NCBI GenBank assembly: GCA_045604705.1
Contig: JAZUOO010000021.1
Location: 3,410 to 67,409, forward strand
Length of the DNA stretch: 64,000 nucleotides
Origin: Eubacteriales bacterium
GTDB lineage: Bacteria > Bacillota > Clostridia > Oscillospirales > CAG-382
Reading direction: 5' to 3'
The notes beneath the pieces were generated by a model, which ran no database searches, was not told the origin of the DNA, and saw only the letters and a list, made by a program, of their open reading frames with translations. The position numbers and the translations under genes were made by a program. Below are positions 34,564 through 38,706 of the stretch, piece after piece. Position 1 is the first letter of the stretch; each line of letters begins with the position of its first letter.

Positions 34564-37317
34564 CTATTCAAGCACATCAACAATTTCACCATATGTAAAT
34601 AAAGAATCGTATTCCTCTACATTTATTGGGGCATATTTTTTATTATACGAGCACAGCAAGGTTTTTCCACCACTATAAGACAGATATTTGCAATACACTT
34701 TTCCATTTAAATAGAATGCACCGACTTTTCCTTCGTCAACAGAACTTGTGCGTTTGATAAGAACAATGCTTTTATCTTTAATATTGGGCTCCATACTATC
34801 ACCTGATATTTTCAATGCAAAGTCACAAATTAAATTCTCGGTTTCGTATTCTTCATACGGGATACCATCAAAACTTTCGTTTCCAATGCCGGCTGATAAC
34901 GGTAAATCATATAGAGGAACAATACGCTTAGTTGTTGTTTCGATAATTTCAAATGAATCGTTTTCTGGAATGTCTTTCACCCACGATTTTATATTGTTTA
35001 ATGAATTTGATTCTTCTTGCAAGTAAGCTGTCATATGATGCGGGTTTAATAAATACATAAAACACAAAATATTTTTTGCTGTTTTTTGTTTTTCTGTTTC
35101 TGATATAAATTCGTAAAAATTATTTCCATCATGAATGCTATATACTTGTTCTTCATAATGACTTTCACCATGCAATACCAATCTGTACATCAAATTCTCA
35201 AAATATGTGGAGTGATTATCGAGTGCCTTTAATACATTTTTATCACATGAAACTTTTTCAATATTCTTTTGGTAATTAAATGTAGAAAAAGCTTCTAACA
35301 CCCTACGCATAATATTACCTATTGTTGCACTGTCATTGTTGGAATCCCCATTAGCATAATGATAAACTTTTTTAATCAAGGCACCGTATTCGTTGTGATT
35401 CTTAATTAGTTGTTTCAAAAGAAAATCGTTTAATTCCAAAACTATGTAGGAAGAAGGAGTTGTTCCTGCGATTCCTTTGGTGGACTGGCAAATTTCTTCC
35501 ATGGCTTTTCTTAAATTAAAAACAGTTTCAAGATCGTGAGATAGAATCAGAACTTTACTTTTGGGATTGCCCTTTATAATACGATTTACCTGAAGACGTA
35601 AAAAAGATGAAATACCAACCTTGTTTTCAAAGTCAAAACTTGAAATTGGATCATCGACAACAATAAATGCTTCATTTTGATACAATCTTGATATTTCTTG
35701 ATTAGTTAAAATTTGGGTAAAAAAATAACACAAAGCGATAATATTTCGCTCACCTAAGGACACATTTTTGGGCTTTACATTCTTGCCTTTTGATTTTAAA
35801 TAATATTTATCATTTTTCAACTCTATGGACAATCGTCCTTGAGAAAAGAAAACATAATCTAAAGCGTTATTTATGTTGTTAATCGCTAATCCAATATTAG
35901 ATTTGCGTTGTTCCAAATTTCGGAGAATTTCTTGTGCGTCTCTTAGTTCTTTTTGCTTTTTTTGAAGCTCATCTAATGCTTTATTCTTTTCTTCGGTTTG
36001 TTTTAAATAGTCTTTGTAAACCTGTTCTATTTGAAGATGTGCTATTAATTTGTTGATAGATATAAGTTCTTTAAGAAGAGAGTCTTTTTTATTTGCAGCT
36101 ACATTAAACTTTTTTCTTTCACCTTCAAGCTTTTCTAGCAATTCATTCAACTGTGCAATTTCTATAGTTAAATTACGGCTTGTTAACTGAATAGGTGTAT
36201 ATACATTATTTACTTTCGTATCAATAGCAGTTTTATAATACTCAAGTATTTCGTGGCATACCTTAAGTTGTGCATCAATGCTTTTTAATAAATTTTGATC
36301 CAAAGCTTCAAATGTTGTTAGATTTATACTTAAACTTGGAATAATTATTGATTTCAAAGTAGTTTTATGTTCATCTACATCCTTGTTAAGCACTTTGTCA
36401 ATACTATTGAGTAGACCATTTTTATATGTTTCGCTAACATCTTGATAGCAATAAGGGCATATAGATGTATCTTTTGAGCTGAATTTGTGGCGAGCACTTT
36501 CTACAGTGGTTTGTCCTCCGTTTTGTATGGTTGCCAATATCATCTTTTCTCTGTCGGTTAAGATAGGTTCTTCAAGCTTAGTCGATAAAACTTCCTGGAC
36601 AGACCGTTCCCATTCATCATCGAGAACAAATAGTTTTATTTCATCCGGATAAGTTGTGGTAACATCCGACACTTTGTCTAACAATGCTTGAGTCTCATCA
36701 AACTTTTTCTGAAGTTCTGAAGACATGAGTTTTGTTGATAAACCACAGATTTCTGTAATTATATCGTCAGTAACAGAAGAATTACGACGATTATTCTTTA
36801 TTTTCGAATCTATCTCAGCCCATCCACCGGACTGTTTCAAAATTGTACTTATCCTTGCCCAGTGGTATTGTGGGCTAAGAGGATTTTGATAAGCCAGATA
36901 TTTATCATATTCAATTTGAAGGACTTCGCGTTCTGTTTCAAGAGTGGCAACTTCAGAAAGTTTTTTATCTATTTCATCTTGCACATTAACTTGTCCTCCC
37001 AACAAAATTATAGTGCCAAGTCCATCATCGTCTATTTTTACATTTTCATCGATGTACTTTTCATTGAATACAAATAACTTTGAATCCTCTGAAAGTGCTA
37101 TCGTACGGTTTTCTGCATTTAATAAAGAAGCTGTCAAGTCGGTTGGGGAAGTATTATTGGCTATAGCGGATAAACTTTCTGAAATTGTGCTTTTACCGCT
37201 TCCATTCTTGCCGTATATAATAGATATTCTATCATTAGCATTGGGAAAAAGAACAAGATTTGTTTCAGCATTAAAGCATCTTCCTTTAATTTTTATACCT
37301 TTAACATTCTCTATCAT
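34564..37317 (-). CDS. RloC/PrrC-like ABC-type ATPase with coiled-coil zinc hook, fused to a C-terminal LexA/UmuD-type S24 peptidase domain
   Basis: Walker A G36KNGSGKST. CPYC (287-290) inside a long Lys/Glu/Leu-rich insert. Signature-like SLGER (520-524). Walker B FIVVDD (551-556). H-loop SH594D. PrrC-like R671-x3-E675 then LHGESH720. S24 module: LPLSA809-G810IG, GDS841MEP, CK877YL. Confidence 0.85.
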   Translation of the reverse strand: MIENVKGIKIKGRCFNAETNLVLFPNANDRISIIYGKNGSGKSTISESLSAIANNTSPTDLTASLLNAENRTIALSEDSKLFVFNEKYIDENVKIDDDGLGTIILLGGQVNVQDEIDKKLSEVATLETEREVLQIEYDKYLAYQNPLSPQYHWARISTILKQSGGWAEIDSKIKNNRRNSSVTDDIITEICGLSTKLMSSELQKKFDETQALLDKVSDVTTTYPDEIKLFVLDDEWERSVQEVLSTKLEEPILTDREKMILATIQNGGQTTVESARHKFSSKDTSICPYCYQDVSETYKNGLLNSIDKVLNKDVDEHKTTLKSIIIPSLSINLTTFEALDQNLLKSIDAQLKVCHEILEYYKTAIDTKVNNVYTPIQLTSRNLTIEIAQLNELLEKLEGERKKFNVAANKKDSLLKELISINKLIAHLQIEQVYKDYLKQTEEKNKALDELQKKQKELRDAQEILRNLEQRKSNIGLAINNINNALDYVFFSQGRLSIELKNDKYYLKSKGKNVKPKNVSLGERNIIALCYFFTQILTNQEISRLYQNEAFIVVDDPISSFDFENKVGISSFLRLQVNRIIKGNPKSKVLILSHDLETVFNLRKAMEEICQSTKGIAGTTPSSYIVLELNDFLLKQLIKNHNEYGALIKKVYHYANGDSNNDSATIGNIMRRVLEAFSTFNYQKNIEKVSCDKNVLKALDNHSTYFENLMYRLVLHGESHYEEQVYSIHDGNNFYEFISETEKQKTAKNILCFMYLLNPHHMTAYLQEESNSLNNIKSWVKDIPENDSFEIIETTTKRIVPLYDLPLSAGIGNESFDGIPYEEYETENLICDFALKISGDSMEPNIKDKSIVLIKRTSSVDEGKVGAFYLNGKVYCKYLSYSGGKTLLCSYNKKYAPINVEEYDSLFTYGEIVDVLE

Positions 37318-37405
37318 AAGCAGTCTCTTTCTTTTCTCGTTATTCTTTTAAATGAAAACCAGTATTTATTAGAATATATCCAATATGGTTTTAGATGAAA
37401 TTTCC

Positions 37406-38635
37406 CTATATCGCCCAAATCGGCACAATAAGATTATCCCTATCAAACGCCCCGAACTGTTCTGCCATACAAAGAACAGCACCTGTGCCAACCTGAAGGG
37501 GTGATTTATCGATAACACCGAATGTGCGGATAATACGCTTGTCGGGTGTTGCAGTTTTCTTTATCTCCAAGGGGCAAAGTTTGCCGTCGCCCTCCATAAT
37601 AACATCAATTTCCTTGGCATCACGGTCACGGTAGAAGTAGAGGTACGGCTCACGACCTGCGTTCTGATAGCCCTTCATAATTTCGGACACCGTGAAGTTT
37701 TCGAGCAGTGCACCGCTCATAGCACCGCTTTCTGCGACTTCAGGCGACGACCATTTGGTAAGGTAGCACACAAGGCCCGTGTCATAGAAATAGACCTTAG
37801 GCGTCTTTATAGTGCGTTTTAGCACATTGTTGGAATAAGGGTGAAGCAGGAATATGATTCCGAGCGTTTCGAGAACATCTACCCACGCTTTTGCGGTTGC
37901 CATATCAATCTCGGCATCCTCGGCAAGTGCGTGATAGTTGAGAAGCTGTGATGTTCTTGCAGCAACAGCGGTGATAAATCGGTTGAATTTCAACGCATCC
38001 ACCGTACCCGAAATATCCCTCACATCACGCTCAACATAGGTTGAAAGATAAGAGGAATAGTACATATTTCGGTCGGGATAAAGCCCCGATACGATACCCG
38101 GCATAGAGCCTTTCCAAATTCGTTCAAAGAGGGTTGGAGTATCAACTGGCGCGATTTTCTTGCACTCATCTATCAGAGTTTCCGTATTAGTCGTGAAAGG
38201 CACACAGTCAACCCCGATAATCTCACGCTGAGACATTGGGGACATATGAAGAAGTGCAACACGGCCAGCAAGCGACTCCTGCACACCACGCATAAGGCGG
38301 AATATCTGCGAGCCTGTCATCCAGAAATCTCCGGGATTGTGATGCTCATCAATATGAATTTTGATATATGTGAAAAGTTCAGGTGCATACTGAACCTCGT
38401 CAATCAGCACAGGCGGCTTATGAATCTGCAAAAAGAGAGCAGGATCGTTCTTCGCCATATCTCTTGTTGCAAGGTCATCAAGAGACACATATTCACGTCC
38501 CTTGTTTTCCTTTTCAGCAAGAGCACGAAGCATTGTCGTTTTGCCCGCCTGACGCGGACCTGTCAGTAGAATTGCCGAATATGACTTCGACAGCTCAATT
38601 ATTCTGTTTTCCATATGACGGTAGATGTAACTCAT
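37406..38635 (-). CDS. AAA+ ATPase (AAA_14/DUF4143-type) with a PD-(D/E)xK-like C-terminal motif
   Basis: Walker A LTGPRQAGKTT. Walker B VLIDEVQ. C-terminal EIDVIMEG..PLEIKKT (D..ExK pattern). Start MSYIYRH lies behind GGAGGGAG. Confidence 0.85.
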   Translation of the reverse strand: MSYIYRHMENRIIELSKSYSAILLTGPRQAGKTTMLRALAEKENKGREYVSLDDLATRDMAKNDPALFLQIHKPPVLIDEVQYAPELFTYIKIHIDEHHNPGDFWMTGSQIFRLMRGVQESLAGRVALLHMSPMSQREIIGVDCVPFTTNTETLIDECKKIAPVDTPTLFERIWKGSMPGIVSGLYPDRNMYYSSYLSTYVERDVRDISGTVDALKFNRFITAVAARTSQLLNYHALAEDAEIDMATAKAWVDVLETLGIIFLLHPYSNNVLKRTIKTPKVYFYDTGLVCYLTKWSSPEVAESGAMSGALLENFTVSEIMKGYQNAGREPYLYFYRDRDAKEIDVIMEGDGKLCPLEIKKTATPDKRIIRTFGVIDKSPLQVGTGAVLCMAEQFGAFDRDNLIVPIWAI

Positions 38636-38677
38636 AACTCCCTCCGTGTACAACAATGGCAGTTTAATTCTGTGTAT

Positions 38678-38706
38678 ATTATACTCCTATTTTACCCGTT
38701 TGTCAA
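38678..38706 (-). promoter_or_regulatory. Consensus promoter of the ATPase / RloC-S24 operon
   Basis: Minus strand: TTGACA (38706-38701), 17-nt spacer, TATAAT (38683-38678), about 40 nt upstream of the ATG at 38635. Confidence 0.6.

Follow-up and report, generated by a model that had tools for sequence, protein, structure and literature searches.

A predicted RloC-type anticodon nuclease carrying a conserved LexA-like S24 peptidase tail in gut Clostridia

The window analysed here is a 64,000-nucleotide (nt) stretch of a Clostridial genome (Eubacteriales bacterium, Oscillospirales; GenBank assembly GCA_045604705.1, contig JAZUOO010000021.1, positions 3,410 to 67,409), in whose own coordinates all positions below are given. 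Its minus strand carries, at 34564..37317 (open reading frame (ORF), stop codon counted in), a gene for a 917-amino-acid (aa) protein in which a RloC-type ABC ATPase, zinc hook and anticodon-nuclease region are joined to a C-terminal S24 peptidase module. Two Pfam families match the chain: AAA_13 (PF13166) over residues 29-732 (E 2.4e-53, 182 bits against a cut-off of 36, model positions 16-699 of 713) and Peptidase_S24 (PF00717) over residues 807-912 (E 2.2e-19, 69.7 bits against a cut-off of 23.3). The fusion had been proposed in an original prediction made by a model from the DNA letters and ORF translations; a script found every motif that it had named at the residue given there, and Pfam matched its assignments of AAA_13 and Peptidase_S24 to this protein and of AAA_14/DUF4143 to the product of the neighbouring gene.

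The ATPase head begins with a Walker A motif, GKNGSGKST (residues 36-44; 37186..37212), and is split by a coiled-coil insert (residues ~112-490; 35848..36984), delimited from helices of the AlphaFold 2 (AF2) model and from Foldseek, that bears the zinc hook CPYC (287-290; 36448..36459). The signature SLGER (520-524), the Walker B/D-loop FIVVDD (551-556) and the H-loop LSHD (592-595) follow within 35533..35760. Next comes the PrrC/RloC-type anticodon-nuclease region, an all-helical C-domain (residues ~640-790; 34948..35400) with RRVLE at 671-675 and GESH at 717-720. Beyond a flexible linker (785-800) that is variable among homologues and of low confidence in the models lies the LexA/UmuD-like S24 module (798-917; 34567..34926), in which S841 is part of GDSMEP (839-844) and K877 of CKYL (876-879), a Ser-Lys spacing of 36. 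The predicted LexA-type scissile bond, A809-G810 in LPLSA/G (805-810), was placed by conservation and is encoded by 34888..34893. In the AF2 model (mean pLDDT 82) the protein has a split ABC head, long helices (112-141, 255-279, 296-322, 341-370 and 383-490) around the CPYC loop at 280-295, an all-helical segment at 641-790 and a beta-rich tail.

RloC has been defined by ABC motifs, a CX2C hook in a coiled-coil insert and an Arg-X3-Glu-X36-52-His triad whose His is often preceded by Ser (PMC2610378). In GkaRloC from G. kaustophilus the key residues are the zinc-hook C291 and R692/E696/H737, and mutation of the triad abolishes anticodon-nuclease activity (PMC2610378). The window protein has the ABC ATPase motifs (Walker A, signature, Walker B/D-loop and switch His), the coiled-coil insert with a CX2C zinc hook at its apex, and a C-proximal triad with Ser before His, R671-X3-E675-X44-S719-H720. 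In an alignment of the core of 75 homologues, with identities down to ~36%, the hook residues C287 and C290, the nuclease residues R671, E675, R712, S719 and H720, and S520, G522, E523, D555, D556 and H594 of the ATPase are invariant; K42 of the Walker A motif is found in 74, the remaining sequence having a gap, and the Glu-to-His spacing is 44-46 residues. Conservation down to 36-42% identity indicates that these motifs are more than chance. By the published sequence definition residues 1 to ~795 are a RloC, all of its sequence-level features being present, and a wobble-nucleotide-excising tRNase activity is predicted. The conserved triad, hook and ABC motifs also make the N-terminal part a PrrC/RloC-type protein, as originally proposed, rather than an unrelated SMC or ABC protein.

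No PrrC or RloC structure is present in the PDB, and the best Foldseek matches of the N-terminal 700 residues were Rad50, SMC and the Lamassu protein LmuB. The nuclease domain of PrrC and RloC has been classed as HEPN (PMC3710099). The corresponding region matches Pfam AAA_13 near its C-terminal end (model positions 613-700); residues 641-790 are all-helical, and the invariant R712 and H720 have a spacing of x7, compared with the Rx4-6H motif. Pfam HEPN models gave no match on residues 630-800, and a Foldseek search with the nuclease domain gave one weak match, to the HEPN domain of sacsin (E 0.29).

For the tail, the best NCBIfam matches are UmuD and LexA, and in a phmmer alignment with E. 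coli LexA S841 falls on S119 and K877 on K156. Together with the Pfam match this bears out the predicted S24-like C-terminus with an aligned Ser/Lys dyad. Foldseek superposed the tail on the C-domains of LexA, lambda CI and UmuD with TM-scores of 0.70-0.77 (about 0.75 to LexA) and root-mean-square deviations of 2-3.5 Å; the matches include the RecA-filament complexes 8trg, 8gms and 8gmu (LexA, CI) and CI fragments that span the cleavage-site region. The fold, the dyad and an Ala-Gly bond upstream of the Ser are thus all those of an S24 peptidase. The A809-G810 bond lies 32 residues N-terminal of S841, within the canonical range of ~30-40, and at the junction of the ATPase/nuclease body and the S24 module, where the original prediction had placed it. 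In LexA and CI an N-terminal helix-turn-helix (HTH) DNA-binding domain would be expected; here the AAA_13 ATPase-nuclease occupies that position instead.

Conservation of the tail was assessed in 41 full-length homologues of 51-82% identity. L802, S808, G810, G812, G839, S841, M842, E843, P844, C876 and K877 are invariant, position 807 is Leu or Ile in all 41, and P806 and A809 are each kept in 40, the one change at A809 being Ala to Gly. The most divergent members of the fusion family (42-49% identity) all keep the Ser-Ala-Gly site, the Ser and the Lys. Percentage identities of tail and core are equal at each locus (82/82, 58/56, 53/54 and 46/48), which indicates that both parts have evolved as one unit under similar constraint. 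The fold, the aligned Ser/Lys dyad, the conserved site and the matched identities argue for a catalytically competent self-cleaving module. A word-indexed search with the S24 tail alone returned only 14 short fragments of the same family.

With the whole protein, the word-indexed search (E <= 1e-5) gave 431 clusters at 90% identity, and the full-length proteins among the best 120 of these were nearly all combinations of PF13166 and PF00717 of 912-960 aa. It had been asked of the original prediction whether the fusion might be common and already annotated with a known function: the first half holds, in gut metagenomes, and the second does not, as none of the database sources names the fusion proteins. 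An exhaustive search of 1.84 billion representatives at 50% identity found 4049 relatives at E <= 1e-3, 687 of them at E <= 1e-30. The tail is present in ~8-10 of the best 150 of these relatives, the others being S24-less and mostly 780-820 aa long. The genomes with the fusion belong to ~20 species of gut Clostridia, including Oscillospiraceae, Evtepia, Subdoligranulum, Ruthenibacterium and Anaerotignum, and at 30-40% identity there are relatives without the S24 tail in Lachnospiraceae, Campylobacter, Bacteroidales and lactobacilli. No other record of the exact window protein was found.

In a neighbour-joining tree of the core domain, the S24-less proteins P0042/P0063/P0067 and P0022 lie deep within the fusion clade, and further S24-less proteins interleave at its base. 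The nested proteins stop at residues ~790-797, just short of the junction, and no separate S24 coding sequence was found near the S24-less genes. These observations indicate that the proteins can do without the tail, which is an old add-on, acquired once and followed by two or more losses. A cut at A809 would leave a body of 809 aa, about the length of the natural tail-less relatives.

At one locus (L013, 9998-12762) a change of frame where the core meets the S24 part splits the fusion gene into ORFs of 838 and 116 aa, reflecting either an assembly error in a metagenome-assembled genome or a tail in the process of being lost. Two S24-less settings were noted. In Campylobacter gastrosuis and C. 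concisus (L045, L050 and L051, ~10.0-12.3 kb) the RloC-like gene sits inside the tryptophan operon, between trpF (PRAI) and trpB (PALP), an odd place for a defence gene. In Succinimonas amylolytica (L038, 4949-7978) a phage tail protein J-like gene lies ~2 kb upstream of the RloC-like gene, separated from it by three small co-directional ORFs, and this member of the family is apparently carried by a prophage.

The closest characterised proteins are the RloCs (GkaRloC and AbaRloC of Acinetobacter baylyi; Davidov & Kaufmann 2008, Klaiman et al. 2012/2013). The hook cysteines C287/C290 correspond to C291 and the triad R671/E675/H720 to R692/E696/H737 of GkaRloC; the body is of ~800 aa in both, and both are located on mobile elements, partly at restriction-modification (R-M) loci. 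The window protein differs in its additional C-terminal LexA-type S24 module of ~120 aa, published RloCs having been described without one, and linkage in cis to restriction genes is much more consistent in the fusion clade than in published RloCs, for which it has been described as rare. EcoPrrC of E. coli shares the order of ABC ATPase and C-terminal nuclease triad and, with homologues L006, L007 and L020, the embedding in a type I R-M operon and the logic of a back-up for restriction. PrrC, however, is of ~400 aa, has neither a coiled-coil/zinc-hook insert nor a protease module, and is kept silent by EcoprrI, with the T4 Stp peptide and dTTP as its triggers; the ~380-residue insert with CPYC rules out PrrC as the identity of the window protein.

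With LexA, lambda CI and UmuD (MEROPS S24) the tail shares the fold, the Ser-Lys dyad, an Ala-Gly bond ~32 residues before the Ser and a cut region at a domain junction. The N-terminal partner is an ATPase-nuclease of ~800 aa and not the DNA-binding domain of LexA and CI, and in lacking an HTH domain the protein is UmuD-like. The likeness of the N-terminal 700 residues to Lamassu LmuB, Rad50 and SMC is structural, and the PADLOC LmuB profile also matches (E 7.5e-11). The effector here, though, is an RNase domain within the same chain, and the PDC-S06 and AAA_13 profiles score far higher, PDC-S06 being the best PADLOC match of the protein (E 6.6e-44). Membership of a Lamassu system was rejected on this difference in score and on the lack of LmuA or LmuC among the neighbours. 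PDC-S06 and PDC-S01, the latter matched by the neighbouring gene product, are both candidate systems in PADLOC, and the PDC-S06 profiles stop short of the S24 module: the two best end by residue 732 and none of those listed passes 767. No description of a RloC/PrrC-S24 fusion was found in the PMC or bioRxiv literature, in keeping with the remark in the original prediction that this architecture is not known to have been described. Both parts belong to well-known families, and the conserved fusion appears to be undescribed.

The usual place of the fusion gene is that of the last co-directional gene behind restriction or R-M genes. At five loci (L006, L007, L020, L005 and L003) it follows a type I hsdM-hsdS-x-hsdR cluster with a gap of ~27 nt, the assignment being by Pfam for L006 and for the hsdR of L003 and inferred from gene sizes for the rest. 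Type I R-M genes together with TIR, Schlafen and DUF3800 genes precede it in L081 and L082. Upstream genes elsewhere are Fic/DOC, Mrr and type IIG (L001), type IIG and a methylase (L026), HpaII R-M (L004), GmrSD (L010 and L012), Z1/AIPR/Dcm with a Schlafen-like helicase (L084), a Schlafen-like helicase with NUDIX (L013) and T5orf172 (L089). The neighbourhoods of the homologues follow the restriction-linked pattern of PrrC and RloC (PMC2610378, PMC3710099), and the S24-less gene of L016 fills the same hsdM-hsdS-x-hsdR slot as the S24-bearing gene of L006. The element in the window has no hsd genes among its annotated genes, and the type I R-M embedding typical of PrrC is therefore absent there. 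Two further features recur at these loci. In L006 (6370-6969) and L016 (6181-6966) an ORF of 199-261 aa without annotation separates hsdS from hsdR, the L006 copy having no Pfam match, and TnpV and DUF6809 genes lie just downstream of the fusion gene, on the opposite strand, in L081, L082 and L085, which suggests a shared mobile-element backbone.

Directly upstream of the fusion gene in the window, 88 nt away and on the same strand, is a gene for an ATPase with AAA_14 and DUF4143 domains (37406..38635; 409 aa from the ATG at 38635, or 416 aa, 37406..38656, from an alternative TTG start at 38656). Pfam matched AAA_14 at E 1.4e-29 and DUF4143 at E 9.3e-47, PADLOC matched PDC-S01 at E 1.7e-107, and the sequence shows EID...LEIKK motifs; as DUF4143 is listed among the PD-(D/E)XK families (PMC3424549), the restriction-endonuclease-like C-terminus ascribed to this protein in the original prediction is upheld. 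The predicted promoter at 38678..38706 (minus strand) is of the sigma-70 type, TTGACA and TATAAT with a 17-nt spacer, and agrees with the consensus at 12 of 12 positions. Just upstream of it is the intrinsic terminator of the preceding gene (38781..38804, minus strand; a 10-pair stem with a T-run). Terminators had been expected on both sides of the pair: the upstream one is strong, and downstream there is only a weak terminator-like hairpin (34349..34368, minus strand; 8 pairs, 3 of them G-C) ~200 nt beyond the 917-aa gene. The claim of a two-gene operon likewise stands in part. The short gap and the single promoter indicate that the two genes are probably co-transcribed in the window, but a conserved module they are not, as a DUF4143 ATPase directly precedes the fusion gene in 3 of ~27 neighbourhoods (the window, L018 and L086). 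By tblastn, the ATPase of the window was found at 2 of 80 genome loci, directly upstream in L018 (45% identity) and distant in L010; in the metagenome contig L086, the AAA_14/DUF4143 ATPase that directly precedes a 76%-identical fusion has no BLAST similarity to that of the window. As a conserved partner the ATPase was rejected, on the count of neighbourhoods and the divergence of the ATPases, and the best reading of the pair is that both genes happen to lie in one defence island.

In the LexA family a Ser-Lys dyad cuts an Ala-Gly bond, usually with stimulation by RecA filaments on single-stranded DNA (RecA*); cleavage exposes degrons, and the N-terminal fragment is then proteolysed. The RloC nuclease is internally silenced and is turned on by DNA-dependent ATP hydrolysis, zinc-hook mutants being constitutively active (PMC3458546), and in vivo it is activated by inducers of double-strand breaks (PMC3874168). 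RloC is toxic and its expression is self-limiting, and it has been proposed as a back-up of restriction when DNA damage alleviates restriction (PMC2610378). We tentatively favour the reading that the 917-aa protein is a RloC-type anticodon nuclease with a self-cleaving S24 tail, in which a RecA*-triggered cut licenses the nuclease. In such a scheme the S841/K877 dyad would cut A809-G810, the likeliest stimulus being RecA-single-stranded DNA filaments arising from DNA damage or phage replication; the cut would free the S24 module of ~108 aa, leaving the 809-aa body, and loss of the tail would license the tRNA nuclease and halt translation (abortive infection). The parts of the scheme differ in strength. 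Cleavage at A809-G810 is likely; its stimulation by RecA* is a matter on which the arguments balance evenly; and, given cleavage, activation of the nuclease is slightly favoured over its removal, since licensing fits the published damage activation of RloC and the logic of a restriction back-up. That the tail is a built-in sensor of RecA* filaments whose self-cleavage directly unleashes the tRNA anticodon nuclease is a more specific proposal and a doubtful one. At the level of the family, the best explanation is that, as with PrrC and some RloCs, a single gene provides a back-up defence, here carried on mobile elements.

Several points weigh against licensing by a RecA*-triggered cut. The Ala-Gly loop is not resolved by AlphaFold and is not seen docked in the active site, residues 808-813 being at pLDDT <50 in both the full-length and the 640-917 models (pTM 0.45 and 0.52, respectively), and the inferred HEPN fold of the nuclease domain leans on the literature and on the one weak sacsin match. 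A Cheo box (GAAC-N4-GTTC) is not present at the promoter and the count of such boxes is at chance level, which gives no independent, transcriptional link to the SOS response. Classic members of the family usually lose the activity of the attached domain on cleavage, a degron being exposed, and by that analogy the switch would work in the opposite direction. LexA-like proteins can also cleave without RecA, as does IrvR, whose RecA-independent, constitutive cleavage acts as a turnover timer (PMC7101444).

The strongest form of this objection is that the cut would expose the ...LPLSA C-terminus as a ClpXP-type degron, comparable to ...VAA in LexA, so that the RloC body would be degraded and the S24 tail would serve to turn the protein over or to switch it off, limiting self-toxicity or disarming the nuclease during a genuine SOS response of the host. 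Cleavage in the LexA family characteristically exposes C-terminal degrons, whereupon the N-terminal fragment is proteolysed, the residues preceding the bond (L802, P806, L/I807, S808 and A809) are strongly conserved in the 41 members, and both the timer role of IrvR cleavage (PMC7101444) and the toxicity and self-limiting expression of RloC (PMC2610378) would suit such a control. The reading of ...LSA as a degron is an analogy, however; the chains of natural S24-less relatives stop short of this segment, so that the body has no intrinsic need of control of this kind, and destruction of the effector upon damage conflicts with the activation of RloC by double-strand break inducers (PMC3874168). 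We regard degradation of the body as unlikely, though deserving of serious weight. A non-cleaving S24 module that serves in dimerisation or in docking to RecA filaments, and so positions the nuclease domains or recruits RloC, is a good deal less probable: the C-domains of LexA and lambda CI do dimerise and bind the RecA filament groove (8trg, 8gms, 8gmu), and HEPN RNases generally need dimerisation (PMC3710099), but a structural role needs neither the Ser, the Lys nor the Ser-Ala-Gly site, all kept down to 42% identity apart from the one change at A809.

The two remaining alternatives look outside the protein. An obligate joint defence system of the DUF4143 ATPase and RloC-S24 would agree with the single consensus promoter, the 88-nt gap and the lack of a terminator between the two genes in the window, and with the position of an AAA_14/DUF4143 gene directly before the fusion also in L018 and L086; it is very unlikely, given that the pair occurs in so few of the neighbourhoods, that 82%-identical homologues follow R-M genes and not a DUF4143 ATPase, that the ATPase of L086 is without BLAST similarity to that of the window, and that PADLOC holds PDC-S01 and PDC-S06 as separate single-gene candidates. 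The conserved Ala-Gly bond at the canonical distance before the Ser of the same chain makes it most improbable that the S24 module acts in trans on another protein, such as a phage protein or the linked restriction enzyme, and no conserved partner protein was found across the neighbourhoods; what speaks for cutting in trans is that UmuD cleaves intermolecularly, that S24 is related to the S26 signal peptidases and that weak signal-peptidase matches were found.

More than 15 years have passed since a response of RloC to DNA damage was proposed, and the sensing step, attributed to a zinc hook and a DNA-dependent ATPase, has stayed indirect. The covalent link of a RloC nuclease to a canonical RecA*-responsive self-cleaving module makes this idea directly testable. 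If the tail is indeed the sensor, it would be the first SOS autoproteolytic switch wired into an immune effector rather than a repressor, and would explain in molecular terms how nucleases of the RloC type detect DNA damage and stand in for restriction once this is alleviated. Were the nuclease gated by cleavage, autoproteolysis of the LexA type would be added to the known triggers of bacterial immune effectors and the protein would be a compact damage- or infection-triggered switch; if cleavage removes the nuclease, it would be a new way to restrain a toxic defence enzyme. In either case the annotation improves for a so far unnamed protein family, one that abounds in the gut Clostridia of humans and animals.

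The gene pair lies in an AT-rich region of the window (GC 0.32-0.37, against 0.42-0.44 in the flanks). The chromosomal lysS (21909-23861) and a gene for a 2077-aa SLH surface protein end at ~30.5 kb, where the AT-rich block starts with a 302-aa ORF, an HTH_17 (excisionase-like) gene, a sigma-70 region-4 gene and the DUF4143 and RloC-S24 pair. The block also holds genes for a 182-aa hydrophobic protein with no family match, read as a membrane protein, a 281-aa integrase, a DUF6017/HTH_36 protein and a 425-aa integrase, both integrases being tyrosine integrases. An imperfect direct repeat of ~170 nt has its left copy at 30825..30982 and its right copy, 76% identical, at 50427..50582, just outside the gene for the 425-aa integrase (49003-50280, minus strand). 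The repeats bracket ~19.6-19.7 kb, a stretch that includes the large integrase gene next to its right end, and are candidate ends of an integrated element. The fall in GC, the two tyrosine integrases, the HTH_17, sigma region-4 and DUF6017 genes and the flanking repeats bear out the island location originally proposed. The window contains no tRNA genes and no Rfam families.

Other features of the element were noted in passing. The 302-aa ORF (31232-32140, minus strand) is in the most AT-rich part of the element and may be a further RNase-type defence or toxin gene; Pfam matches it weakly to HEPN (E 1.3e-3), and PADLOC and NCBIfam do not match it. Between it and the HTH_17 gene, ~1.4 kb (32150-33550) contain no ORF of >100 aa and no Rfam match. 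At 34390-34421, AACTGCTTACCATTTT occurs twice in exact tandem, a 16-bp repeat that could be an operator; it has a promoter-like site (34459-34431, minus strand) on one side and the sigma-70 region-4 gene (33790-34155) on the other. Three tandem paralogous genes for AMP-binding enzymes and an acyltransferase gene occupy 39486-46148, with a conserved junction of ~64 nt before each AMP-binding gene, and appear to be cargo of the element. Inside the DUF6017/HTH_36 gene, four copies of a 15-nt periodic repeat at 47882-47963 could be iteron-like or could code for a peptide repeat.

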